Of a DNA stretch of 64,000 nucleotides, positions 746 to 35,823 are shown one piece after another. The notes beneath the pieces were generated by a model, which was given only the letters and a program-made list of their open reading frames with translations, made no database searches and was not told the DNA's origin. The DNA comes from a virus. Taxonomy: Duplodnaviria; Caudoviricetes. Each line of letters begins with the position of its first letter. The first letter of the stretch is position 1. The stretch lies in the IMG/VR virus record IMGVR_UViG_3300009873_000001. The stretch is one strand, 5' to 3'. The position numbers and the translations under genes are program-made.

Positions 746-748
746 GCC

Positions 749-1129
749 ATGGGCGCGTTGACCATGCAAGAGCTGAACGGCCTGGGCCAAGCTGAGGTCA
801 TTGCCGCGCTCGTAGGCCCGCTCGTGCAGGGCGGCGCCGACATTTACCGCACGGTCGAGGAGAGCAAGGCCGCCAAGAAAGAGCTCAAGGCCCGCCAGCA
901 GGAGGCGTTGATCGCGCAGACCACCGAGCGCGAGCGGTTGGCCGCGCTCGAGCGGCAAAGCGCCTTGGCTACCGCAGCGGCGATCAGGCAGTCACAGGCT
1001 TCTCAGGCGTTCTGGGCGCAATACATGCCGTACATCTTCGGTGGAGTGGGGCTTCTGGCGTTGTCTTTCGTGGCTGTGTCGGCCGTGAAGGCGCGCAAAA
1101 AGAAGGCGACGGCGACCAGTGGCAGTTGA
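749..1129 (+). CDS. Small virion membrane protein (coiled coil plus C-terminal TM)
   Basis: N-terminus MGALTMQELNGLG; helical core; TM YIFGGVGLLALSFVAVSAV then basic tail. Confidence 0.75.
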   Translation: MGALTMQELNGLGQAEVIAALVGPLVQGGADIYRTVEESKAAKKELKARQQEALIAQTTERERLAALERQSALATAAAIRQSQASQAFWAQYMPYIFGGVGLLALSFVAVSAVKARKKKATATSGS

Positions 1130-2733: not shown

Positions 2734-3342
2734 ATGGCCTATCTAACGATGAGACGGCGCCTGCGTACCGGGCTGAGCGGTCTTGGGCTTGGCCCGGCTG
2801 AGGACGAGTATGAAGACTGCAGGCGACGGTATCCGGTCAGCGGGCTGCCGCGTGGTGACGCGCTAACGCCTAACGACCCATGCTTCAACCAGCTCATGGC
2901 CAGCAGAACTGAAGAGGCGGCGCGGCAGGAGGCGCTGCGTAAGGCGCGCTCCATGCCGCCGCCACCCGTCATGAGGCCCGCGCCTGCGCCTGCAGTATCC
3001 GGCAAGTCGCAGTACGAGATCTACGCAGAAGAGGCTGCGCAGGCCTCAAGAACTCAGGAGTCAGTTTACGATCGCGTCGCCCGCCTACGGGAAGAGCAGC
3101 GACTGAACGCGATCCGCAGCGACATGAACATTGAGCGGCCTGACAAGATCATGCCGATTCAAGTTCCGGGATCCATGAGCGACAAGCAGCAGTCCGAGTG
3201 GCTCATGTCGCTGGCTCTGCAGACCAAGCAAGAGCGCGACGCCGCCAGCGCAGCTCGAGGGCTCAAGACGGCAGCCGGGGTGGGCGCTGTGGCGCTGGTC
3301 GGGCTTGGCATGTTGTACCTGATCTTCAGGAACAAGAAGTAG
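2734..3342 (+). CDS. Membrane protein with CR...DPC module
   Basis: LSGLGLG, then GPAEDEYEDCRRR..LTPNDPCFNQLMASR; C-terminal TM. Confidence 0.75.
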   Translation: MAYLTMRRRLRTGLSGLGLGPAEDEYEDCRRRYPVSGLPRGDALTPNDPCFNQLMASRTEEAARQEALRKARSMPPPPVMRPAPAPAVSGKSQYEIYAEEAAQASRTQESVYDRVARLREEQRLNAIRSDMNIERPDKIMPIQVPGSMSDKQQSEWLMSLALQTKQERDAASAARGLKTAAGVGAVALVGLGMLYLIFRNKK

Positions 3343-5689: not shown

Positions 5690-6718
5690 GTGTCGACTCT
5701 CACCATGGACGAGTTGAACGACTTCGCTGGCCTTGGCCAGGCGGCGAGGGCCAGGCGCGAGGATCGGTCCCGTCGTTACTACAAAACAGGTCCCAGGGTA
5801 ATTCCTCCGCCAGTTCTGGATCCTAGGGTAATTCCTGGGAAGACGGCCCCTAGAACTACGTTCGATCCGTACGCTTACCGCGCTCCACCGCCTCCGCCTC
5901 TGCCACCACCTCCGCCAGCGACTGGAGGTCAGGGCGTTGACTTCACGAATCCTGTCTGGGTAGAGCCGACCAGCCCTTTCCGGAAGGGGGCCGTTGTGTT
6001 CGCGCAACCGTCCCCCAAGGTGGCCCCCAGGGCGCCGGCCCCGCCGCCAGCGCCGCCGCCAGCGACTAGCGGTAAAGGCGTCGACTTCACGAACCCTGTC
6101 TGGGTAGAACCGACCAGCCCCTTCCGGCAGGGGAGCGTCATGTTCGCGCAGCCGGCGCCTAGGCAGCCAGCGATTGCCACTAGGGCATCTGGTCTATCTG
6201 GGGCGCCGCGCCCAAGGCTCGTGACTGAGTACGCAGAGGCCTACATTCGCTGCCGAGAGGCGAATTCTGAGTCGCGGCTACGCGCTAAAGGAATCTGGCC
6301 ATTCACGCCAGAGGATCCTTGTTGGGACGTGTGGCGGATCCACGACCCAGATCGAGCGGCGGTAGCGCTCCAAAAGTACAAGGCCGAGAAGGCATACCAA
6401 GCCAAGATCAAGGAGACCGACGAAAGGGCGCGCCTCGCCAAGATTCGCGCAGGGTTTCCAGGAAAGTCCATGACAGTCGCCCCGCCGCTTACGGTGTCGC
6501 CAAGGCGACCGGCTGAGCAAGTTCCGATTCCGTGGCCCAACAGGGACGGGCTCGAATACAGGATGACAACCGAGAGTCCGTACAGGCCGCGGTCTGGGCT
6601 AGGGCCAGTCAAATCGCCGTTCTTGCGTTCGGGGCGGCTGTACGGTGTGGAGGGGGAGGCGGGCAGCCCGGCGTGGGTGCTGGTGGCTTTGGGATTCGGG
6701 TTCTGGTTGTTGAGCTAG
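5690..6718 (+). CDS. Pro-rich membrane protein with internal duplication and DPC module
   Basis: MSTLTMDELNDFAGLG leader; two copies of GVDFTNPVWVEPTSPFR; YIRCR..EDPCW; C-terminal hydrophobic tail. Confidence 0.7.
   Translation: MSTLTMDELNDFAGLGQAARARREDRSRRYYKTGPRVIPPPVLDPRVIPGKTAPRTTFDPYAYRAPPPPPLPPPPPATGGQGVDFTNPVWVEPTSPFRKGAVVFAQPSPKVAPRAPAPPPAPPPATSGKGVDFTNPVWVEPTSPFRQGSVMFAQPAPRQPAIATRASGLSGAPRPRLVTEYAEAYIRCREANSESRLRAKGIWPFTPEDPCWDVWRIHDPDRAAVALQKYKAEKAYQAKIKETDERARLAKIRAGFPGKSMTVAPPLTVSPRRPAEQVPIPWPNRDGLEYRMTTESPYRPRSGLGPVKSPFLRSGRLYGVEGEAGSPAWVLVALGFGFWLLS
5912..6133 (+). repeat. Intragenic direct repeat, about 78 bp x2, 144 bp apart
   Basis: 5912-5989 and 6056-6133 encode PPAT.G.GVDFTNPVWVEPTSPFR.G. 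Confidence 0.9.
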
Positions 6719-6726
6719 GAGCGATC

Positions 6727-8217
6727 ATGACGCTTCGCATGGACGAGCTGTTCGGATTCGCTCAGGCCGCGTCTGGCGATTTCCGCTACGGGCTTGGAAA
6801 GCCGAGCAAGAAGAGCTGCTGTGACAACTGCAAGTCCGGGAAGCCGTGCTGTGGATCTGGCGACCACGGCCACGACCACCGCATGCTCGGAGACGTGGAC
6901 GAGCAAGAGCTGGAAGCTCCCCAGTACGGCTATCAGTACGTGCAGACCACCGTGCCTGGGAAGACCGTCTTCGGCAAGCCGGTTGGTCTCGTGCCGAAGG
7001 AGCGCAAGATCGAAATCACGCGCCTGATCGACGAGCTCGAGTGGCTCGCTGGAACGCCGGGGATTCACCCCGGGGTACTGGCTCAGAAGATCTGGGAGGC
7101 GCGGCGCCGGCTCATGGGCAGCGCGGACTGGGAGTTCGCGTCCTATGCCACGCCTGGGCAGAGCTGGGACTCGAAGGAAGCATTGCTCGATCGGCTTGAG
7201 GCCGTGGAGCGCGTGCTTGGCGTGGAGGGAATCAGCCCGAAGCTCATGAGTGCATTCGCTGGAATGGGTGGGCTGGGCACGTATCCGTACCAGGACATTC
7301 CACGCTGGACGGAGCAGTACTGGCCGATCAGAAAGCTGGCGTCCTGCATTCGTTCGCGGATCTGCCACAAGGACGAGTACTGCTGCCCGCCCCAAGCACG
7401 GTATCCAGAGCCTGACTGGTGCTATCACCCACCTCAGAGGGTGCTGTGGCCGGCTTTGCCGCCGCCTCCTCCACCGCAGCTGCCGCCTCCTTTCCTGCCG
7501 CCCAGGACGTTCGAGCCGGTGGGGATCTTCGTGCAGCCGCCGTTCGGGACCAGGCTGCCACCGCCGCCGAGGCCACCGAGGCTGCCTCCGCCCCTGCAGC
7601 CGCCGCGCCTGCCGCCTCCGCCACTCCCTCCCCGCCTTCCGCCGCCGGAGGAAACCAGGCTGCCACCACCTCCGCAGCCGCCGCGGCTGCCGCCACCTCC
7701 GCCGCCGGAAGAAACCAGGCTCCCTCCGCCCGGAGGCCCGCCGCCTGGCGTCGAGCTCAGACCGCTGAGGAGGACCGTTGTCGGTCTGCCGGTCACGGCT
7801 GGTGTCGAGATGGCGCAACTCTCCCGCGGGATCCCGACTCGTCAAATGCTGCAACGAGTCACGCCAGGAACGGCGCCTATGGTGGTGCCCATGCCCTCGG
7901 GCGCCGGGGCCAATTTCGTTCAGGCCGGCCCCGTGATCGAGGTGCGCGGCGCCCCCACGCGCATGGTCGAGGCTGGGGCCACGCCATGGCCCGCGCGCCT
8001 GGTTCAGGGCGGACGGCAGGCGCCGACAGTCATGCTTCCGCCTGCTGGGCAACAGACAGGCAACGCTCTGCAAATTGCGGCGAGAACCGTGCCTCAGGCG
8101 AGAATTGCTGTACGTCCTGGTCAGGCAAGCCTGGCCGGACTGAGTGGTTCTGTGGCTGATCTTCTGGCGCTAGTCAACGAGACGCGACGCGAGATTCGCC
8201 GGCAGAGGGGAGCCTGA
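6727..8217 (+). CDS. Cys-cluster and Pro-rich protein with RLPPP repeats
   Basis: AGGAG RBS before ATG 6727; MTLRMDELFG leader; SCCDNC..PCC; FAGMGGLG; RLPPPP tandem repeats. Confidence 0.7.
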   Translation: MTLRMDELFGFAQAASGDFRYGLGKPSKKSCCDNCKSGKPCCGSGDHGHDHRMLGDVDEQELEAPQYGYQYVQTTVPGKTVFGKPVGLVPKERKIEITRLIDELEWLAGTPGIHPGVLAQKIWEARRRLMGSADWEFASYATPGQSWDSKEALLDRLEAVERVLGVEGISPKLMSAFAGMGGLGTYPYQDIPRWTEQYWPIRKLASCIRSRICHKDEYCCPPQARYPEPDWCYHPPQRVLWPALPPPPPPQLPPPFLPPRTFEPVGIFVQPPFGTRLPPPPRPPRLPPPLQPPRLPPPPLPPRLPPPEETRLPPPPQPPRLPPPPPPEETRLPPPGGPPPGVELRPLRRTVVGLPVTAGVEMAQLSRGIPTRQMLQRVTPGTAPMVVPMPSGAGANFVQAGPVIEVRGAPTRMVEAGATPWPARLVQGGRQAPTVMLPPAGQQTGNALQIAARTVPQARIAVRPGQASLAGLSGSVADLLALVNETRREIRRQRGA

Positions 8218-8219
8218 GC

Positions 8220-10163
8220 GTGTACGAAATGGCGCGCCCGAACCCGTGGTTTTCTCCACCGGCGTTGCAGTACGTCGCGCGCTTCTCGCCGGCCTTCTTC
8301 AATCCGCCTGAAGTGGCAGAGAACCCAGGACCGTGCTTCTTCAATCCGCCGCGAAGGAAGCTGTGGATCAGAGGAGTAGAGCCGAGCTGGCACGCGCCGG
8401 CCGGGCTGTTCTCGGAAGGCAGCGCGGAGGAGATCGCTGACGAGATCCTCGAAGCGCACGACTACGACCTGGCGTCGTCCATGCAGTCGCTCCAGTTCTA
8501 TATCAACCGAGCTGGAAGGAATCTCGGGCGGCTGCGCGTCCTGAACCGGGCCAAGCAGATCATTCGGCAGGAAGGAATCTCCCGCGCTGAACAGCGCGCG
8601 CCGCGACCCATGCGCGCCGCCGCCAACCCGGCGTTCTTTCCCTACTACCCGAACCCGCCGTCGCATGAGGACGAAGAGAGCGTCTGCCCAGATTGCGGCG
8701 AAGAGTTCTGTATTTGCGAGGACGTGTCTCTCGAATGCCCGCAATGCGAAGGGCCGGGCATGCTTCTGGGGCGTCTTGGAGGCCGCACGCACTACCGCTG
8801 CAGGAACTGTGGGTGGGACTTCTCGCAGACCGGAGAGAATCCACTCCACTGCAGTGGCTACGAGTTCAGCTGCGACGAAGGCTCAGACGGCGTGCTCTCG
8901 TATCGCGCGCCTGACGTCGAGCGCCATGCGCGTGAGCCGAGCTTCCTACCTCGGCCCGTCCGTGAGTACATGGACAACCCGGTCCGGCGCAACGCGACCT
9001 GCTTCGCGTGCATGAGCACGAGCTGTCCGTGCGGCTGCCAAGGCGACGAGTCGCTGTGCGTCTGCCCGAACCCGCTCTCCTGGGACGAGGCGCAGTCCAC
9101 GCTCGAGCACGTCGACAAGTACCGCCGTCGCGCACGCGAAGAAGATCCGGACTGGGGTCTCTACTACACCGGGGCCGCGCGCGGTGCGCTCCGGCCACTG
9201 AAGTACGGACACCCAGCGCTCTACGAAATGGAGAAGCGCGCCCAGCAGAAGTTCGAACGCGAGATCTTTCGCGCGCCCGCCGGGAGCGCCGCGGCCAATC
9301 CGCTCGACGACACCGAGGTCGGTCAGATCATGAGCGGCGTGCGCTCGCACCACGCGCGGTCGCGCTCGGAGGAAGATCCTGTTCAGAGCGCCTACTACGG
9401 CGGTCGGGCCTACGAAGGGCGGCGGATCGCAGACCGCTACGGCTCTGTGCCGTGGAGCGCCTCTGGCAGGGCTGCAGCGAACCCGCGCACCTGTGGCTCG
9501 TGCGAGCGCGGCGACCATGACCGCTGTGAAGGGTGCCTGTGCTGGTGCAGCGCGACCGGGTTCTATCCTGCGCTGAGGAATCCGTGGTGGAGCGAACCGA
9601 GCGAGGACACGGTCTGGTTCTGTCGTGAGTGCCGCGCCGGCCAGCATCTTTCCTGCCTCGGCCCTGGCTGCAACTGCGGGTGCGTGTCGCAGAATCCGTT
9701 CGCGGTCGTGCCCGTCGAAGCAATCATGAATCCGCGTCGGCCGAAATACTTCACGATGAAGCCGCAGATCGAAGAAGGCGCAGCGTTCCCGTCGCGCCCG
9801 TTCTCCCATGGCCAGCTCCGCCGCACCATGGAGACAGACCGCATGCACCAGAGCCGCATGAAGGGGATCATTCGCTGGGTCGCCAAGAAAGAATTCGGAG
9901 CGAATCTCTCCGACGCCTCGATCGAGGCCATGCTCGGGCGCTCGCGCGCGCAGCTAGCCGAAGAGGGCCGCCACCGCCTCTCGAAGATCAAGGCGCGCGC
10001 CGATCAGATCTTCTACGCGCAGTCGCGGAAGTTCTACGGCCTGCCAGGAACAGAGATCTCCGAAGAGACCGTGCCAGAGCCGGCGCGCGGGCGCCGCGTG
10101 CGGATCGTGAAGGTCAAGCGGAAGAAGAAGGCCGGCGCGAAGAAGCGGAAGAAGGTCGGGTAG
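8220..10163 (+). CDS. Modular protein of Asn-Pro-delimited units: DUF3175-like unit, Cys/His Zn-binding units, basic tail
   Basis: More than 12 NP motifs; FYINRAGRNL resembles the DUF3175 signature; several CxxC clusters; Lys/Arg-rich C-terminus. Confidence 0.7.
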   Translation: MYEMARPNPWFSPPALQYVARFSPAFFNPPEVAENPGPCFFNPPRRKLWIRGVEPSWHAPAGLFSEGSAEEIADEILEAHDYDLASSMQSLQFYINRAGRNLGRLRVLNRAKQIIRQEGISRAEQRAPRPMRAAANPAFFPYYPNPPSHEDEESVCPDCGEEFCICEDVSLECPQCEGPGMLLGRLGGRTHYRCRNCGWDFSQTGENPLHCSGYEFSCDEGSDGVLSYRAPDVERHAREPSFLPRPVREYMDNPVRRNATCFACMSTSCPCGCQGDESLCVCPNPLSWDEAQSTLEHVDKYRRRAREEDPDWGLYYTGAARGALRPLKYGHPALYEMEKRAQQKFEREIFRAPAGSAAANPLDDTEVGQIMSGVRSHHARSRSEEDPVQSAYYGGRAYEGRRIADRYGSVPWSASGRAAANPRTCGSCERGDHDRCEGCLCWCSATGFYPALRNPWWSEPSEDTVWFCRECRAGQHLSCLGPGCNCGCVSQNPFAVVPVEAIMNPRRPKYFTMKPQIEEGAAFPSRPFSHGQLRRTMETDRMHQSRMKGIIRWVAKKEFGANLSDASIEAMLGRSRAQLAEEGRHRLSKIKARADQIFYAQSRKFYGLPGTEISEETVPEPARGRRVRIVKVKRKKKAGAKKRKKVG

Positions 10164-10165
10164 TC

Positions 10166-10384
10166 ATGGCTAGCCGCGAGGAGTGTGCTGCTGGCTTTCG
10201 CGCGGACGGCTCGCGGCTCGCGTACGGAGATTGCGATTTCGTGGAGAGCGCGCGGGCGGCTCCATATCCGTCTCTCTATGTTCGGGAGTCCGGCACAGAC
10301 CTCATGAGCGGCTTCGGCAAGGGGTTGGTCTACGGTGCAATTGGAACCGTGGTGCTGTTCATTCTGATCCAAAGGCTCAGGTAA
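10166..10384 (+). CDS. Small membrane protein
   Basis: ATG 10166 just after upstream stop; MSGFG then C-terminal TM. Confidence 0.65.
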   Translation: MASREECAAGFRADGSRLAYGDCDFVESARAAPYPSLYVRESGTDLMSGFGKGLVYGAIGTVVLFILIQRLR

Positions 10385-10386
10385 CA

Positions 10387-11325
10387 GTGGACGTTCGTCA
10401 AAACCCACTGCTGGCGATCGTGGGCAACCCAGCTCGCGACATTCACCCGCTTGCTTTCGAAGCGCGCGACCGCTATCGCGCCGATATGAGCGCGGGGCAC
10501 GAAGAAGCCGCCGAATACTGGCGCGGGCAAGCCGGGGCGTTCTTCACCGGCAACAATCCGCTCGGCCCGATCTACTACTATCCAGTCAAACACCGCGGTC
10601 TTTTGATCGGAGCTATGCAGGCCGACGACGGCATCGACGCCATGCGCTCTGCTGAAGAAGAATTCGGCCCAGGTGTGAATCTCGGAGTGGCGTACAGGTC
10701 GCTGCAGGCGTTGATCGCGCGCGAAGGTCACCCGCCAGTTGGTCCGATTCCAGCTAAGAGGATAGGCTACTACTCCGAAGGCGGACCACTCTACGGCAAG
10801 AACCCCAGAAGGAATCCAGCGCTCGACGAAGAAGAGCTCGACATAGCCGAAGCGCAGCTCGCGCTCGCAGAGCGGCATAGAAGTTCTGTGGCGGGTTCCA
10901 AGTCGCGCGGTAAGGTCAAATCAAAGGGCAGGAAAGTCCGGGGAAACCCACAAGAGAAGAGGAAGCAGCGGCCGAAGGTCACGCGCTACAGCTTGGAGGA
11001 AGCGCGGAAGAAGTTCAGAGGCCTCGACGCTGCGATCAAGAAGTTCAAGAGATTCCATGGCTCGAGCAGCAATCCAGATCATGTCGACGTCTACCACCTG
11101 CCGGACGGCAGGAACGAAGAGCGCGTCGAGAACGTGCATGCAGCTCTGCACCGGACTCTTGAGACTCCTTACGTCGTACCCTGGAAGAGCAACAAGAAGG
11201 GCACCCTTTGGCTGCACGAGCATCCAGAAGGAGACGGGGCGCCTCTCGAGGTCCTCGACCCTGAGACCGGCACCACGCGGAAAATCGCGGGTGACTTCGT
11301 GGTCGACGACTGGTGGGAAAGCTAG
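10387..11325 (+). CDS. NP-motif basic modular protein
   Basis: GTG 10387; RQNP, GNP, NNP, KNPRRNP, RGNP, SNP; basic central part; AIKKFKRFHG domain. Confidence 0.7.
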   Translation: MDVRQNPLLAIVGNPARDIHPLAFEARDRYRADMSAGHEEAAEYWRGQAGAFFTGNNPLGPIYYYPVKHRGLLIGAMQADDGIDAMRSAEEEFGPGVNLGVAYRSLQALIAREGHPPVGPIPAKRIGYYSEGGPLYGKNPRRNPALDEEELDIAEAQLALAERHRSSVAGSKSRGKVKSKGRKVRGNPQEKRKQRPKVTRYSLEEARKKFRGLDAAIKKFKRFHGSSSNPDHVDVYHLPDGRNEERVENVHAALHRTLETPYVVPWKSNKKGTLWLHEHPEGDGAPLEVLDPETGTTRKIAGDFVVDDWWES

Positions 11326-11466
11326 AAGCAATGAGCTCACGAATTTGTGGACAGGTTCGAGAGTTCGGCTACGGTTGTACATGGAGTCACTTCCGTGTTG
11401 AGTCACACGCTTTTGATTCCTGTGCTGAATCCGCCGCGCGGAGCGAGCGGGAGGAGTAAGAGCAAA

Positions 11467-13341
11467 ATGGCGACGAAGTCGAAGTCGTCTCGCAAGCGCG
11501 GAAGGAAGGTCGCCAAGACCAGCTCGCGCACCCGCAAGGGTGGACGGAAGCTGACTTGGGTCGAGGCCGCGCGCTCGTCAGGCGCTGTCTATCCAGCGAG
11601 CTGGCCGGACGCCAAGAAGCGCGGGAAGGTCATGTCGCCCAATGACGCCTTGATCGCCAAGGTGCCGGTGGTCGGTTTCTTGAACCGCGCCATGATCAAG
11701 GGGTGGCACGAGAAGACCTCTGGTCTCGACACCTCGAACAAGCGCTACAAGAAGTCGAAGGCCTACAAGGGCGCGGTGGCTTGGCTCAAGCAGGGCTCGG
11801 CCCTGCTCAAGAAGCAGCGCCGCGAGCGCGGGTCGATCTGGTTGCGCGAACCGGCCTTCAAGTGGTCCGGTCGCGGAAAAGCAAAGAAGCGTGTGCGTGT
11901 TCCGGACTTCAGTGTGAAGGACGGCAAGCTGCGTTTCCGTGCGGGGCGCGGTCCTTACACTTCGCTCCGTCTCTACCGTGGTTTCGGGCCCACAAAGCGC
12001 CAGGTCGGCCGGTTGGTCGGCGGCGGTTTCGGGGGTCCACTGTCTGCGCCAGGAGGCACTGTGAAGCTGAACAGGTCCCGCAGGCGGAAGGGCCGTCGTG
12101 CCGGTCGCCGTCGTCGGGGTTCTTCCGTCATGCACGTCAAGTTCAACAAGCGCCGCCGCCGCGCGCGCCGCAACAAGGGACGGAAGAGCGGTGCCGGTTT
12201 CACCTCCGCCGTCTACAACAACAAGGGTCGGAAGAAGCGTCGTCGTGGCAAGCGTGTGGTGCTCGAGTCCGGCGCCAAGAAGCGCCGCCGCTCGATCAAG
12301 GTCTCTGGCAAGGGCCTCGTGGTCCGCACCAACCGTCGCCGTCGTCGCCGCCGCAGTCACGCGGCAGCTTCCAACCCGCGGCGTCGTCGCCGCCGGAGCC
12401 ACGTCCGCATGAACCGTCGCCGTCGTCGTCGCCGTTCTGTGGCCTCGAACCCCCGTCGTCGCCGCCGTCGCGCGGCTGCGAACAGCGGGCGTCGCCGCCG
12501 TCGCCGGCACTCGGTGAGGGCGAACCGCGGGCGCCGTGGCCGTCGCCGTCGGCACTACGCGATCGTCAAGCACAACCGCGGGCGTCGGCACCGTGTGCGG
12601 AGGAACCCGTTCCAGGCCCAGCTCGCGCAGCTGCGTGACGCTTCGTTCTGGATCACTGGCGGCCACATTCTCGTGGGCGCCGGTCTGACCGGTCTCGCGA
12701 GCCGGGCGATCATGAACTTCAAGTTCGCTCGCCAGGTCGCGTCCATGCGTGGCGCGGGTGGCGCGGTCGCTCGCGCTGGCTTGAACGTGGGCAGCACGCT
12801 GCTGGTCTCGGCGGCGGTCTCCTACCTCAAGCGCTTCGTGGGCGGTGGCCGCTACCTCGAGAACGTCGAGCGGAACGTGCTGGTCGGTGGCGTGGTCTAC
12901 ACGCTGGCCAACCTGGCGTACGACCTCTGGCCGGGTGGGGCTGAGAAGCTCATTCCTGGCGTGAGCGCGCCGCGCGGCAACCTGCTGCCACGCGCCTCGT
13001 CGGCCGCGGCCAGCGGGGAAATGGGCTGGCTCCCGGGCCGCAAGGCCTACCCTGGCGAGTACCCCGGTTACGGCGGGCTCGGCATGGTCATGAGCCCTGA
13101 GGACCTGGTCGCTGGCGAGTCCATGGCTCGGCAGGTGAACGAGTTCTCGGGTCTCGGCAGCTCGGGCGGCGCTCCGGTGCCGCTCGAGGATCTGCGCGGC
13201 TACCCCGGCCAGTACGGCGGTGGCATGAACGACTGGATGGAGCTCTCGGGCATGGGCGGAGGCATGGGCGACTGGGTCGAGATCGACCCGAACGCCAACC
13301 TCGTGAAGGCCGGGTTCGACCCGGGCACCGAGACGTTCTAG
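11467..13341 (+). CDS. Arg-rich (protamine-like) membrane-associated core protein
   Basis: GAGGAG RBS before ATG 11467; Asn-initiated poly-Arg blocks; three hydrophobic helices after RRNP; C-terminal GLG/GMG motifs. Confidence 0.75.
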   Translation: MATKSKSSRKRGRKVAKTSSRTRKGGRKLTWVEAARSSGAVYPASWPDAKKRGKVMSPNDALIAKVPVVGFLNRAMIKGWHEKTSGLDTSNKRYKKSKAYKGAVAWLKQGSALLKKQRRERGSIWLREPAFKWSGRGKAKKRVRVPDFSVKDGKLRFRAGRGPYTSLRLYRGFGPTKRQVGRLVGGGFGGPLSAPGGTVKLNRSRRRKGRRAGRRRRGSSVMHVKFNKRRRRARRNKGRKSGAGFTSAVYNNKGRKKRRRGKRVVLESGAKKRRRSIKVSGKGLVVRTNRRRRRRRSHAAASNPRRRRRRSHVRMNRRRRRRRSVASNPRRRRRRAAANSGRRRRRRHSVRANRGRRGRRRRHYAIVKHNRGRRHRVRRNPFQAQLAQLRDASFWITGGHILVGAGLTGLASRAIMNFKFARQVASMRGAGGAVARAGLNVGSTLLVSAAVSYLKRFVGGGRYLENVERNVLVGGVVYTLANLAYDLWPGGAEKLIPGVSAPRGNLLPRASSAAASGEMGWLPGRKAYPGEYPGYGGLGMVMSPEDLVAGESMARQVNEFSGLGSSGGAPVPLEDLRGYPGQYGGGMNDWMELSGMGGGMGDWVEIDPNANLVKAGFDPGTETF

Positions 13342-13513: not shown

Positions 13514-14152
13514 ATGACAATGCGCGTAGTACCCATTCCGGCGGTTGGCGCTGTCGGATCGCGTCCTCGAAAGGAACCGATCTATGACACTGAAGGCTGG
13601 GCGCCTGCAGTGCCGCAGCAGGCTGAGATCGTCACGTTCGTGAACTTCTCGGCCTTCAACACGGCGGGTCTGTCGCTGGCCAAGGCGTTTGGCCGTGACA
13701 CGAACCTCCAGGGTCAGAACGGCCTCCCGGCCGCTCACCACCACTACTGGTACGGGCTCCGTCTGAAGCTCCGTACCCTGGACGCCAACCTCTCGACCGC
13801 TCCGAACGTGGTCGTGCCCGAGCAGCTGAACCGAATCCGCGAGCTGAGCTTCTGTCAGTTCCGGTTCGCCAGCTCCGAGCTGATCACGATCCAGGCGGAC
13901 GAGGCGCCCAACGGCACGGGTCCGCAGTACATCAACACCACGCACGCGGGCGCGACCGTGCTGTCGCTCCCGTCCGGTGTGCCCACCCGCGGAAACGCCA
14001 AGGACGTGACGATCTCCGGCCGTCCGGTCGAGATCGTGGCGCTCGAAGCGTTCCGCGTCGTGATCGGCACCCCGGTCGGGATCACCCCGCTCGTGTCGGT
14101 GTATGCGAGCGTGATCCTCGAAGGGCTCCTCCTCCGCGGGATCACCGGCTAG
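13514..14152 (+). CDS. Putative single jelly-roll major capsid protein
   Basis: 212-aa beta-rich protein; EPIYDT..DTNL.GQNGLP..WYGLR..VILEGLLLR pattern; own hairpin-bounded unit; strongly GC3-biased codons; fold inferred. Confidence 0.55.
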   Translation: MTMRVVPIPAVGAVGSRPRKEPIYDTEGWAPAVPQQAEIVTFVNFSAFNTAGLSLAKAFGRDTNLQGQNGLPAAHHHYWYGLRLKLRTLDANLSTAPNVVVPEQLNRIRELSFCQFRFASSELITIQADEAPNGTGPQYINTTHAGATVLSLPSGVPTRGNAKDVTISGRPVEIVALEAFRVVIGTPVGITPLVSVYASVILEGLLLRGITG

Positions 14153-14177: not shown

Positions 14178-14216
14178 ACAGCGCCCCGCTCATGCGGGGC
14201 GCTGTCGTGTACAGGC
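14178..14216 (+). terminator. 12-bp hairpin plus conserved TGTACAGGC tail
   Basis: acagcgccccgc-tcat-gcggggcgctgt followed by cgtgtacaggc. Confidence 0.55.
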
Positions 14217-14389
14217 AGGGTGAATCACGCGACAAAATCACCCTCCCTGCTAGCCTGGTACGTAGAGGGGCAAATCCCTCAGACGGCTTCTCTTCTCTTG
14301 GCGGCCCGCCGGTCCTGTCCAAAAGACAGGCCGGCGTGGCCGCTGATCAAGAGTTAAGTAAGCCGTCGAGAAGAGAAGCAGGAGGGTTT

Positions 14390-15772
14390 GTGCAGCTTGC
14401 GCCGCACCCCATGAAGATCGTGTCGGGCTGGGGCTCGACCGCGACATGTGCGTATTGCCATGGATTCGCCAAGATCAAGCCATTGGTCCGCGGATCAGAC
14501 GGCTACATGCACATGAACCCGGACTTCGAAATGATCCGGCGCTTCCACATGCGCGCGGAGCCGTATGGGTTCTCGCTGCCCGCCGGTGCCACACAGGAGT
14601 TCGTGTTCACGGTCCCTGCCGAGGAAGAAAGCCTCGGCGACATGCTGATCAACGAGCTGCTGGCTGTGTTCACACCCGACACGGTGCGGAATATCAGCGT
14701 GCAGTTCCTCAGCCTTCAGACCGACCGCGTGTTCCAGAACGCCCCGGTGTTCAACACGCTCGTGTTCGGGAACAGCCACCTGAACTGTTGCCTGCCCTGC
14801 TGCACGCTCGTCCAGGCCACCAACTCGCTCAAGATGTCGGTCACGAACAACGAGGCGTTCCCGGTCGAGATTCGCGTGGTCGCGCGCGGGATCCGGTTCC
14901 TGCCCAAGAGCGACGAGCTCCGCACGCGAATGCTGATGTACTGGAACACGATCCCGAGCTATCCGTACTTCCAGACGCTGGACCAGCAGGAAGTGATCGT
15001 GCCCGGCGGCGGTGCTGCGTTCTCGGTGACGGCGCTCATGACGATCACCGGCACGGGTGACTTCGAAGTGAAGTGGCCGCGGGCCGAAATCATTGACGTG
15101 GGTCCGCCTGCCGATCCGAACCTGGTGCTCGTGAGTGTGGTCGAGCAGGTCGGCCGCGAGTGGCAGACGGATCCGATTCCGCTCACGAGCTTCGTGGCCA
15201 CGCCCACGCTGGTCGTGCCTGGCTTCCCTGGCGACCTGTTTCGCGCGGCCTCGGCCTGTCACTGCCCGCCCTACCCGCAGCTCTTCAAGCGCAACAACCG
15301 GATCCGTCACATTTTCACCAACAACAACCCGGTGGGTGTGGACGTGCGAGTGCGGCTGACCTACGCGGGCTGCTTCCATGAGGTCGACGAGTGCAAGCCG
15401 GGCCGATCCATGGACAGGATTCGCAGCCTCGAGCCGACGATCGGGCCGGTGCTTGTCACCCAGCGTGACATGTGCCCGCCTCACCCGGAGGGCTATACGC
15501 CGGAGGAGGAGTACTACAACGACCTTCCGTTCCAACCTGCAATCCCGCCGCCCATGCCGGCCGCACAGCCAATGCCCATGAGGGTGCAGGCGCCTGCGCG
15601 GCAGGGGCTGCGGTTCGTTCAGCAGGCACCGCTGCCGGGATCGCAGCGGATAGCGGCCTACCCGCAGGTTCAGCCGCAGCCGAACCCAGCCGGTCCGCCC
15701 GGACTCGGCGGAATGGTCAAGCGCGGTGAGCTCTACTGGGATCCGTTCGCCAAGGCGTGGAAGAGGGCGTAG
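14390..15772 (+). CDS. Putative double jelly-roll-like capsid protein A
   Basis: GGAGG RBS before GTG 14390; two internally similar beta-rich halves; Pro-rich tail with GLGG; paralog of next gene. Confidence 0.55.
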   Translation: MQLAPHPMKIVSGWGSTATCAYCHGFAKIKPLVRGSDGYMHMNPDFEMIRRFHMRAEPYGFSLPAGATQEFVFTVPAEEESLGDMLINELLAVFTPDTVRNISVQFLSLQTDRVFQNAPVFNTLVFGNSHLNCCLPCCTLVQATNSLKMSVTNNEAFPVEIRVVARGIRFLPKSDELRTRMLMYWNTIPSYPYFQTLDQQEVIVPGGGAAFSVTALMTITGTGDFEVKWPRAEIIDVGPPADPNLVLVSVVEQVGREWQTDPIPLTSFVATPTLVVPGFPGDLFRAASACHCPPYPQLFKRNNRIRHIFTNNNPVGVDVRVRLTYAGCFHEVDECKPGRSMDRIRSLEPTIGPVLVTQRDMCPPHPEGYTPEEEYYNDLPFQPAIPPPMPAAQPMPMRVQAPARQGLRFVQQAPLPGSQRIAAYPQVQPQPNPAGPPGLGGMVKRGELYWDPFAKAWKRA

Positions 15773-17124
15773 TGCTCGACCGCGATCCAATCTACGGCAT
15801 GGGCGACTGCCGCACGTTTGCGGACATGCCGCCCCTCGTCCACTGGGAAGACGGGTCGACCTGTATCAACCCGGACTTCGAGCACAACTGGCGCTTCCAC
15901 CGCTCGGCGCTGGCGAAGGATCCCACCGGCCCCTTGGCGCAAGGGCTCGTGCCAGTAGTCACGATCCCTGCCGGCGGGAACGTCGACTTCCAGCTCAAGG
16001 TCGATCGGGAAGAAAACGGCATGGGCCACTTCCTGATCAACGAGCTGTTCATGCTCACGGATCCGACCGACGCCAACAACATTTCGATCACGATCAAGGA
16101 CCAGCAGAGCGACCGGATGTACATGAGCAATCCGGTTTTCAGGCCGCTGCTGTTCAGCACGACGTTCCTCTCGGCGTGCCTGACGTGTCCGATCATGCTC
16201 TTCCCGGACCAGACGTTGATCATTCGCGTCAACAACCTGGAGGCCTTCCCGGTCACGATGCGGATCAACGCGCGCGGCAAGCGCTTCATGCCCTATCACG
16301 ACTGGAAGCTCGTGCAGGAAATGGAGAATTGCTGGTCGCACATGGTCAGCAACCCGTTCTGGCTGACGCTGGACGACACGCAGATCACGATCCCGGCCGG
16401 TGGTCGCGTGCGGTCTCAAATGAGCGTGCCTGGCGGGTGGTTCTTCTACAACCAGCCGCGGACCATGGTCACCGTGGCCGGGGATCTAGTCGTGGGCAGC
16501 GACATTCTCGTCGAAGTCACCGACGGCCGAATCGGCAAGCGGCTCATGGACGGGCCGATCTCGCTGGGTAGCCATTACGCCACGCCCACGCTGACCGTGC
16601 CTGGCTTCCCGGGCAACACGTATTCCGCAGCTACGGCTCTGCACTGCCCGCCGCAGTCCATGTTCTTCCGGCCCACGACGCGACTGATTCACGACTTCTT
16701 CAACACTGGCCCGGCTGATGCGGTCGTGCGACTGACCTACGAGGGCTGCCTCACCTTTGCAGACAAGTGCCCGCCGCACCTCGACGTCGAGCGTGAGCGG
16801 CGGATAGATCTCATGTTTGCTTCCAATCCGCTGTACGTGGACATGACCCAAGAAGAAGGAGGCTGCCAGGCGCCGGCCGACCTACCCAAGCCGCGCGTCA
16901 CAGCCATGTGGCGCAGGCAGCGTGGGAACGCCCTTCCGCCCCACCTGGCGTTCGTTCGCTATGAGGACCAGCGCGTGGAGGTCGTGGTGCGCGATCCGCG
17001 CACGAATGAAGTCGTCCGACCCGCGGTGGCGCATGAGATCCCGCTCTGGGCGAGACTGAGCTCGGAAGGCGGGCTCGAGGGGCTCGGGTCTCGCCCTGCG
17101 CAGGGCGAATGGGAGGCGCTGTGA
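15772..17124 (+). CDS. Putative double jelly-roll-like capsid protein B
   Basis: GTG overlaps upstream TAG; shares NPDFE, LINEL, EAFPV, ATPTL.VPGFPG, HCPP and VRLTY.GC with protein A; LEGLG near C-terminus. Confidence 0.55.
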   Translation: MLDRDPIYGMGDCRTFADMPPLVHWEDGSTCINPDFEHNWRFHRSALAKDPTGPLAQGLVPVVTIPAGGNVDFQLKVDREENGMGHFLINELFMLTDPTDANNISITIKDQQSDRMYMSNPVFRPLLFSTTFLSACLTCPIMLFPDQTLIIRVNNLEAFPVTMRINARGKRFMPYHDWKLVQEMENCWSHMVSNPFWLTLDDTQITIPAGGRVRSQMSVPGGWFFYNQPRTMVTVAGDLVVGSDILVEVTDGRIGKRLMDGPISLGSHYATPTLTVPGFPGNTYSAATALHCPPQSMFFRPTTRLIHDFFNTGPADAVVRLTYEGCLTFADKCPPHLDVERERRIDLMFASNPLYVDMTQEEGGCQAPADLPKPRVTAMWRRQRGNALPPHLAFVRYEDQRVEVVVRDPRTNEVVRPAVAHEIPLWARLSSEGGLEGLGSRPAQGEWEAL

Positions 17125-34929: not shown

Positions 34930-34965
34930 CCTAGCTGTCAGTTCGTTTTGATAGATTGTCGCTCG

Positions 34966-35823
34966 GTGAGCGACGCCCAACTCAGAGAAGTAGAGCGAGA
35001 AGTCGAAGCGCTGCCCGAGGCGCTTCAGCGCTATCGCGCGCAGTTGCTCAGGAGCTGCTCGTTCCTGGAGTGCTGGCTGTGCGGCACGCTCGTGCCCGAG
35101 CCGCTCATGTCGGACCACGACAAGGTCTGCAGAGTTCAGTCGTTGCCGAACAGGAATCTTCAAGGACAGCCCTTTGGAACCTTCACCTCGTTTCAACCTG
35201 TTCAGCATGCCCAGCCAGTGTCAGGCGGCCATGTAGTTCCGCAGCCGCGTCAATTTGGCGCCCGGCCGCGACGCGAGCCGCTCTATGACACGGTGTCCTT
35301 TACTGGCAGCATTTGCTGTAGGCCGCGCAAGACGATCTTCTACATTCGCGGCGCGCTCGACAGCACTAGGACAGTTTGTCAGTTTCTTGGGCCAGCCAGA
35401 GACGCAAAGGACTCTTGGCTGACGAACATTCCAGGCAGCGGAACCTGGCTCCCTCCAAGCCATGCGTTCTTCTGGTATCGAACGACATTGGCCCCAGACG
35501 TTGGCCAAGACGTCGGGTCCGTCCTGAGCGTGTGGCGCAACGGGCGGCTTCGATTTCAACACCAACAGACTGAACTGCTCGAATGGCCGTGCATGGCGAT
35601 CATGACCGATCCCAAGTCCCTGCCCAAGCTCGAGACCGGCGAGTTGGTCGGCTTGGCTAGCGTCAGGCCGCGGGCTGACGTCACAATCGCCGGCCAGCCA
35701 GTTCAGATCCACGGGCAGGAGAGGATCGAGTTCGCACTCGACGTGCCGGTGCCGCCGGCCAATCCGGTCAAGTTCACGGTTCTCATGTACGGCATGCACT
35801 TGAGACCGATCGCTGGAGACTAG
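34966..35823 (+). CDS. Paralog of the putative single jelly-roll capsid protein with N-terminal helix and Zn finger
   Basis: RPRREPLYDT, LTN..LP..H..WY, DVTIAGQPVQI, LMYGMHLRPIAG align with 13514-14152. Confidence 0.7.
   Translation: MSDAQLREVEREVEALPEALQRYRAQLLRSCSFLECWLCGTLVPEPLMSDHDKVCRVQSLPNRNLQGQPFGTFTSFQPVQHAQPVSGGHVVPQPRQFGARPRREPLYDTVSFTGSICCRPRKTIFYIRGALDSTRTVCQFLGPARDAKDSWLTNIPGSGTWLPPSHAFFWYRTTLAPDVGQDVGSVLSVWRNGRLRFQHQQTELLEWPCMAIMTDPKSLPKLETGELVGLASVRPRADVTIAGQPVQIHGQERIEFALDVPVPPANPVKFTVLMYGMHLRPIAGD

Follow-up and report, generated by a model that had tools for sequence, protein, structure and literature searches.

Asn-Pro punctuation of three genes upstream of a conserved marker gene

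The window analyzed here, a 64-kb stretch of the virus record IMGVR_UViG_3300009873_000001 (64,000 nucleotides), has 65% G+C, is coding on the + strand over nearly its whole length, and is nearly without database matches. Three of its + strand genes, A, B, and C, encode proteins punctuated by the dipeptide Asn-Pro (NP), whose sites are referred to below as seams. Protein A (8229–10163; 644 amino acids; G+C at third codon positions, GC3, of 0.80) is a mosaic with 14 NP seams. Protein B (10387–11325; 312 amino acids) has 7 NP seams; its leader, of the form M..RQN, is followed by the tag PLLAIVGN, and its last ~100 residues or so form a conserved domain. Protein C (11398–13341, with an uncertain start at 11347–11413) opens with the leader LLIPVLN/PP, in which the slash marks the seam, followed by an Arg-rich region with N(P)RRRRRR units and a hydrophobic C-terminal half with GLG/GMG. 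Downstream of C, a conserved + strand gene of 212 codons (13514–14152) contains no NP and was used as a marker of the lineage, relative to which the NP genes are located; with 58–99% identity in 15 loci fetched from metagenomes, IMG/VR, and one metagenome-assembled genome (MAG), it is, by sequence comparison, the most conserved gene of the region and lineage.

Protein A most likely starts at ATG 8229 (MARPNP...) rather than at GTG 8220, the start given in a preliminary description of the window; the called 644-residue protein on a 273,580-bp contig is identical to protein A. Numbered from this ATG, the Asn residues of the 14 NP are 5, 25, 32, 39, 133, 142, 204, 250, 281, 357, 418, 451, 489, and 501. 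From the 21 Asn and 54 Pro of the protein, 1.75 NP are expected (Poisson p ~5e-9), and none of 20,000 shuffled sequences got to 14, the maximum being 8. In protein B, 7 of the 12 Asn precede Pro, where 0.88 are expected (p ~4e-5; 0 of 20,000 shuffles got to 7, maximum 5), and across the 32 proteins of the B family the count is 158 of 362 Asn versus 23.7 expected. The more than 12 NP described previously for 8220–10163 and the seven described for 10387–11325 are therefore present and elevated over expectation in both open reading frames (ORFs). The punctuation also reaches into C, the Arg-rich gene after B that lay beyond the range of that description, with four NP in the window copy. The remaining 49 ORFs of the window, when pooled, have only a mild NP excess.

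In terms of database matches, DUF3175 is the sole Pfam match in A, and Pfam returns nothing in B or C; no enzyme domains were detected in the three proteins by Pfam and PHROGs. No relatives of protein A were found in IMG/VR, no match to it was found among GenBank phages, and an ESM Atlas look-up gave no usable match. As had been described, A and B lack the GLG motif of their neighbors: neither contains a G[LMI]G motif, and neither has a membrane-like segment, whereas GLG is found in C and in the membrane-anchored proteins encoded upstream of A.

The C-terminal domain of B (residues ~200–312, window 10990–11325) has invariant His224, His251, His277, Asp240, Asp308, Lys270, and Trp275/309 in an alignment with seven distant relatives, a pattern that could be that of a metal site or an active site. 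The AlphaFold model of B, computed from 7 sequences, has a mean predicted local distance difference test (pLDDT) score of 43 and is unusable. The leader of C, M.LLIPVLN-PP (window 11347–11436), is kept in nine loci with synonymous codon changes, so that the ATG chosen by gene callers, at 11467, is downstream of the real beginning of C; judging from the sequence, the start in the window is probably a TTG, at 11398 or 11413. The basic region in C-type relatives consists of successive 12–26-residue Lys/Arg peptides, each of which begins with Pro and ends with Asn. Between A and B lies a 72-codon ORF with a C-terminal membrane anchor (window 10166–10384), which is a called gene on a near-identical contig and is absent from L001, the closest relative, where B comes 8 bases after A.

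Modules, leaders, and conservation of the seams

The mosaic make-up of A was delineated by a full HMMER scan of 1.8 billion proteins, in which parts of A are found separately elsewhere: the N-terminal peptide (residues 1–39), a DUF3175-like segment (~41–120), a Zn ribbon (~161–205), and the C-terminal basic domain (501–644). The sub-features listed in the preliminary description, namely a DUF3175-like unit, five Cys clusters, two NPL...EEDP...YY.G.A repeats, and a basic tail, can all be recognized. The leader MARPN is followed by a conserved tag peptide, PWFSPPALQYVARF...N (8241–8306, + strand, from the alignment of relatives), which has NP at both sides. This tag is 65–85% identical in P0003, P0005, P0007, P0008, P0148, L005, and L011 (here and below, P and L numbers are our designations for related sequences and loci), where its flanks are unrelated, and it is present twice in P0007, P0008, and P0148. 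Directly after NP39, A folds, according to the AlphaFold model (pLDDT 94–98), Pfam, and library matches, into a DUF3175-like helical domain (residues ~41–125; 8349–8603, +). The Pfam match of A to DUF3175 (PF11373; E = 1.2e-5, 25.9 bits) falls just below the 27-bit cut-off. Three strong members of the family, P0011, P0022, and P0023 (97, 50, and 93 bits to DUF3175), match residues 41–122 of A at E values of 1e-16 to 1e-10, with best stretches of 43–119, 41–122, and 41–114, respectively, and through these strong DUF3175 proteins the DUF3175-like unit in A is real at the level of sequence homology. In 51 library proteins, the alignment to A begins at residues 41–50.

A Zn-ribbon module (residues ~150–204; 8676–8840, +; pLDDT 95–97, three strands, with library matches) ends at NP204. 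The match to A ends at residues 201–210 in 50 library proteins, and Asn204 is the final residue of the Zn ribbon in the model; a Foldseek search of this model against the PDB gave weak Zn-ribbon rows and nothing else. Seven more NP-bounded units make up residues 205–501 (8841–9731, +) and comprise Cys clusters, two helical NPL...EEDP repeats, two Cys-rich units, and a 12-residue spacer; AlphaFold models this region with low confidence, with helices between the NP sites. One relative, P0002, is without the entire 452–501 block, the break being at the NP451 seam. From NP501, A continues into a C-terminal helical domain with a Lys/Arg tail (residues 502–644; 9732–10160, +; pLDDT 97–98 over 535–605), and P0005–P0009, P0013, P0015, P0017, and P0021 match A from residues 500–508 on.

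NP marks module borders in A. The edges of library matches fall on NP: matches set in just after NP39, stop at NP204, and set in again at NP501. The three confident domains of the AlphaFold model, residues 45–125, 165–203, and 535–605 (pLDDT 94–98, the rest of the chain being of low confidence), are free of NP inside: rather than being buried in folded domains, which would have spoken against such a role, none of the 14 NP of A lies within them, and for 12 of the 14 the Asn is in a segment whose pLDDT stays below 50. The large indels that separate A from its 83%-identical orthologue are two Cys-rich blocks, each with one end at an NP seam. Across 56 proteins of the lineage, 33% of internal BLAST breakpoints (n = 1,115) fall at most 3 residues from an NP versus 11% at random (maximum of 14% in 500 randomizations), so that homology breakpoints coincide with NP at about three times chance. 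Modules are also fused and split between genomes, as the C-terminal domain of B ends proteins of 1,097 residues in L011 and 960 residues in L003, the former of which also carries the A-type tag.

Each of the three proteins has a short leader that ends in Asn, followed by a conserved peptide that begins with Pro: MARPN/PWFSPPALQYVARF..N/P in A, M..RQN/PLLAIVGN/P in B, and M.LLIPVLN/PP in C. The leaders ahead of the first NP are freely variable, from Met-Asn up to more than 20 unrelated residues. In four cases, a module that is preceded by Asn when internal starts with Met-Pro when it opens an ORF, and three of these starts were checked on the DNA. The start of P0006, MPFFSPPSLQY..., has the Shine-Dalgarno sequence GGAGG; the stand-alone P0013 begins with MPKKPKYF..., as compared with MN/PRRPKYF in A, and has a stop six codons upstream; and the start MPLLAFVSN/P at 7023 of L006 overlaps the preceding stop. 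The fourth, MPWLAIVGN/P of P0154, is taken as called. Since an initiator Met ahead of Pro is normally removed, both routes would yield the same Pro-first unit, which puts the unit border between Asn and Pro. Two other translational explanations of individual sites were rejected: a 2A-like NPGP stop-go site at residues 32–35 of A, since the orthologue has NPP and the genome is of prokaryotic type, and translation beginning internally at Met500, the residue ahead of NP501, which is without an upstream Shine-Dalgarno sequence.

The codons of the seams vary (AAC or AAT followed by CCG, CCA, CCC, or CCT), indicating that the constraint acts on the protein. In the pooled proteins of the lineage, NP is enriched 5.8-fold, whereas Asp-Pro, Ser-Pro, and Thr-Pro are at 1.15-, 0.95-, and 0.86-fold, respectively; a generic Asx-Pro turn or helix cap therefore fails to explain the NP. 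At 10 independent loci, the two or three genes directly upstream of the 212-codon gene are enriched in NP (p of 1e-3 to 1e-9), and the capsid-like genes downstream of it are without enrichment. In P0001–3, P0005–8, P0012, P0085, and P0148, which belong to the lineage, 35–70% of Asn precede Pro, whereas stand-alone cellular homologues, i.e., ordinary DUF3175 and Zn-ribbon proteins, lack any NP enrichment. NP is thus a trait of these genes in this lineage and not of the domains themselves.

The seams are also conserved. Between the window and L001 (85% identity), 18 of 20 alignable NP are kept, nine of them with synonymous changes, and one of the two scored as lost is merely shifted by one residue. 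The L001 orthologue of A, 83% identical over the aligned residues, retains all 11 NP outside the large indels. In terms of context, position −3 is hydrophobic or Pro at 68% of NP sites versus 39% of other Asn (p 1e-7), and position −2 is Arg or Lys at 27% versus 12% (p 8e-4), giving a loose seam consensus of hydrophobic/Pro, Arg/Lys, any residue, Asn, Pro. The preliminary description had proposed a second code, either a cleavage site or a packaging tag for internal DNA-associated cargo. Of this proposal, a selected, Asn-specific, lineage-conserved mark at module borders, distinct from the GLG of the neighboring proteins, stands on the sequence comparisons; cutting, a packaging or docking tag, and a hinge would be alternative roles for it. 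Our literature searches turned up no account of Asn-Pro serving as a code in the proteins of phages or virions. New here are the Asn specificity seen in the dipeptide spectrum, the equivalence of Met-Pro starts, the NP-bounded tags, the breakpoint statistics, and the 245–274-kb lineage.

Candidate maturation sites and alternative roles

We tentatively favor the reading that the seams are maturation sites, cut between Asn and Pro, in cargo proteins of the particle interior, and we put its likelihood somewhat short of even. The NP proteins are soluble, basic, and probably located inside the particle, the location in the virion being suggested by gene order. A, B, and C would belong to the core or cargo of a giant, uncultured virus of bacteria. 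Each is a chain of small, independently evolving modules, which range from short conserved tags, Lys/Arg peptides, and helical hairpins to Zn ribbons, a DUF3175-like domain, and a basic domain like those that bind DNA. If the chains were cut at the seams in the course of assembly or afterwards, the short leaders and tags would be lost, and modules and small basic peptides would be released beside the DNA. Either a protease encoded by the virus could do the cutting, or the side chain of the Asn, as happens in known Asn/Pro self-cleavage. The former might be a transglutaminase-like Cys-His-Asp enzyme from the same gene block of relatives. All three relatives examined (L003, 564–1331; L026, 1141–1917; L025, 1309–1923) have, 10–17 kb upstream of the 212-codon gene, a transglutaminase-core gene whose Cys-His-Asp triad is intact, with conserved GDCDDHS, WSHVY, and ADSTQ, and its product is, from these sequences, a candidate maturation protease. 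By synteny, its counterpart in the genome of the window would lie ~2 kb before the window start.

Maturation at one recurring motif has precedents. Adenain of adenovirus cuts pVII, pX/Mu, and pVI at (M/I/L)XGX-G, and pS273R of African swine fever virus (ASFV) cuts pp220 and pp62 at Gly-Gly-X. The internal proteins of T4 carry an N-terminal capsid-targeting tag that is removed by gp21 after Leu/Ile-x-Glu. Giant phages have prohead proteases, an example being gp245 of SPN3US (PMC10052503). As in adenovirus, ASFV, and giant phages, the locus has several putative particle-interior proteins, including Arg-rich DNA-associated ones, beside putative shell genes, and leaders and units alike are followed by a single short motif that keeps returning; the small basic peptides bounded by the motif in relatives of C are reminiscent of adenovirus Mu. 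Unlike in those systems, the motif is an Asn-Pro pair, which is not known for any of their proteases, the Gly consensus of the adenain code, G[LMI]G, is lacking in A and B, and the window yielded no homologue of adenain, pS273R, or a prohead protease. The T4 targeting sequence is similar in that a short N-terminal tag stands directly before a recurring motif in proteins that are putatively packed with DNA, and it differs in its motif and virus type and in that targeting and removal of the tag are hypothetical in the present case.

The mosaic build is reminiscent of the polyvalent proteins of phages and conjugative elements, reportedly described by Iyer, Burroughs, Anand, de Souza, and Aravind in 2017. 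These, too, are long mosaics of shuffled modules in mobile elements, thought to travel with the DNA, and their modules are likewise fused in one genome and split in another; polyvalent proteins are, however, defined by multiple enzymatic domains, of which A, B, and C have none detected, and have no dipeptide seam code. The NP proteins thus resemble one-motif maturation substrates in one respect and polyvalent mosaics in another, and membership of either family fails because the motif differs, no homologous protease was found, and enzyme domains are missing.

The same scissile dipeptide is used by asparagine peptide lyases (MEROPS N6, FlhB/YscU; N7, reovirus mu1; and RsgI). Self-cleavage between Asn and Pro is established in FlhB/YscU/EscU (at NPTH), reovirus mu1, aquareovirus VP5 (Asn42/Pro43), and RsgI (PMC3207474, PMC10328401), and two of these, mu1 and VP5, belong to virus particles and shed an N-terminal peptide. 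This chemistry would account for why Asp, Ser, and Thr cannot replace Asn and why Pro must follow. Self-cutting nonetheless accounts for the smaller share of the likelihood given to cutting as a whole: it is rather improbable that the seams are self-cut in a protease-free manner, with the Asn side chain attacking its own carbonyl within flexible linkers. In such a scheme, the following Pro would block the competing deamidation route, and confinement with DNA or dehydration in the particle might speed the reaction. The lyases have one site each, in a folded turn that activates the Asn, whereas 4–14 sites per protein are found here, and no homology to a known self-cleaving domain was detected by Pfam in A, B, and C or by Foldseek against the PDB in A. 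If self-cutting were true, core proteins and DNA-condensing peptides would be matured without an enzyme, by a multi-site, unstructured version of asparagine-lyase chemistry, and the code would be widespread in an undescribed group of large viruses.

Several considerations weigh against cutting as such. The transglutaminase-core gene was not found within the 64-kb window, and nothing links its product to NP over the GLG motif of the neighboring proteins. The NP lie in predicted flexible linkers, whereas known Asn/Pro self-cleavage uses a folded active-site turn, and few proteases are known to tolerate a Pro at P1'. With its weak flank consensus, the motif amounts to essentially two residues. 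An NP conserved at the edge of a module could also be a structural cap that the module brings along by descent, and Met-Pro starts are also compatible with Pro as the plain first residue of a module. Finally, sequence searches of the PDB, PHROGs, and GenBank phages gave no matches that would identify the neighbors as shell or capsid proteins.

The cap can be extended into a reading of its own, in which Asn-Pro is a rigid or kinked hinge or cap that is carried along with each module and the proteins act at full length. It is a serious possibility, if a less likely one, as the NP are located in linkers and right before predicted helices, and shuffled modules keep their own NP. Yet Asp-Pro, Ser-Pro, and Thr-Pro would make equally good caps or turns and are not enriched, a hinge makes little sense five residues from the N terminus or after a Met-Asn leader, and neither the −3/−2 context nor the replacement of Asn by Met exactly where a module opens an ORF is explained. 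The Asn specificity, the flanking context, the leaders, and the Met-Pro starts together argue for a chemical or enzymatic role over a cap. Alternatively, the NP-bounded peptides PWFSPPALQYVARF..N, PLLAIVGN, and LLIPVLN may dock the proteins to the shell, the membrane, or the packaging machinery, with NP as part of the recognized surface and later removal optional. Their much higher conservation relative to the rest of the proteins, their position at or near N termini, and their duplication in some relatives are all consistent with such a recognition or packaging tag, for which the T4 targeting sequence is a precedent; most NP sites, however, do not adjoin a conserved peptide, and a two-residue motif is too short for specific binding, so we consider this role unlikely. 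Composition, or a DNA-level signal (AAYCCN) unrelated to the protein, has in its favor that Asn is rare and Pro is common in a genome of 65% G+C. This explanation is effectively refuted by the shuffles, by the varying codons, and by an enrichment that is limited to two or three genes per genome and lasts in relatives diverged beyond alignment.

If the seams are cut as in the maturation reading, they would constitute a new maturation code, Asn/Pro, for core proteins in a lineage of uncultured, very large viruses of bacteria, and sequence alone would then suffice to predict what hundreds of dark-matter proteins become on maturation. Such cutting would point to a protease of unusual Asn/Pro specificity or to a new self-cleavage, and hence to a useful compact, programmable cleavage module. 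Even if they are never cut, the seams mark domain borders in proteins that have no database annotation.

Neighboring genes and the viral lineage

The block that contains the NP genes has the order membrane-anchored proteins, Pro-rich protein, A, B, C, and the 212-codon gene, followed downstream by one or two paralogues of ~450–530 residues and then by genes of ~250 and ~120 residues. This order is shared by the window and distant relatives, which indicates a block of late or structural genes, conserved in a lineage of prokaryote viruses that is undescribed and of very large size. The 212- and 526-residue proteins have no match among GenBank phages, the neighbors have none in the PDB by sequence, PHROGs returned nothing on the conserved block of L003, and an ESM Atlas look-up of the 526-residue neighbor gave no usable match.

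The membrane-anchored proteins upstream of A (window 746–1129, 2734–3342, 5690–6718, and 6532–8217) share a leader of the form M..LTM.EL..F.GLG. The Pro-rich protein (window 5690–6718) contains a ~50-residue unit twice, each with GVDFTN-PVWVEPTSPFR, and these hold both of its NP sites. On the contigs of the more distant relatives P0003 and P0005, a GP88 (PF17338) protein is encoded between the A-type and B-type genes, and the P0003 contig has a Mom-like gene with a LAGLIDADG match. SSIP-1 was rejected as a relative, as it is without NP enrichment and without similarity to the window.

At 245,276 bp, the relative IMGVR_UViG_3300017971_000001 is a complete genome: it has direct terminal repeats and a completeness rating of 100%. 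Another relative, JAJDAN010000066.1 (190.5 kb), comes from the bin of a 'Deltaproteobacteria bacterium' MAG and thereby gives a weak clue to the host. The 212-codon gene has a 27%-identical paralogue within a 291-codon ORF of the window (34948–35823). The adjacent window genes at 14192–15772 and 15757–17124 are paralogues of each other, 48% and 35% identical, respectively, to a single 441-codon gene of L003, indicating that a putative structural gene was duplicated in this genome.

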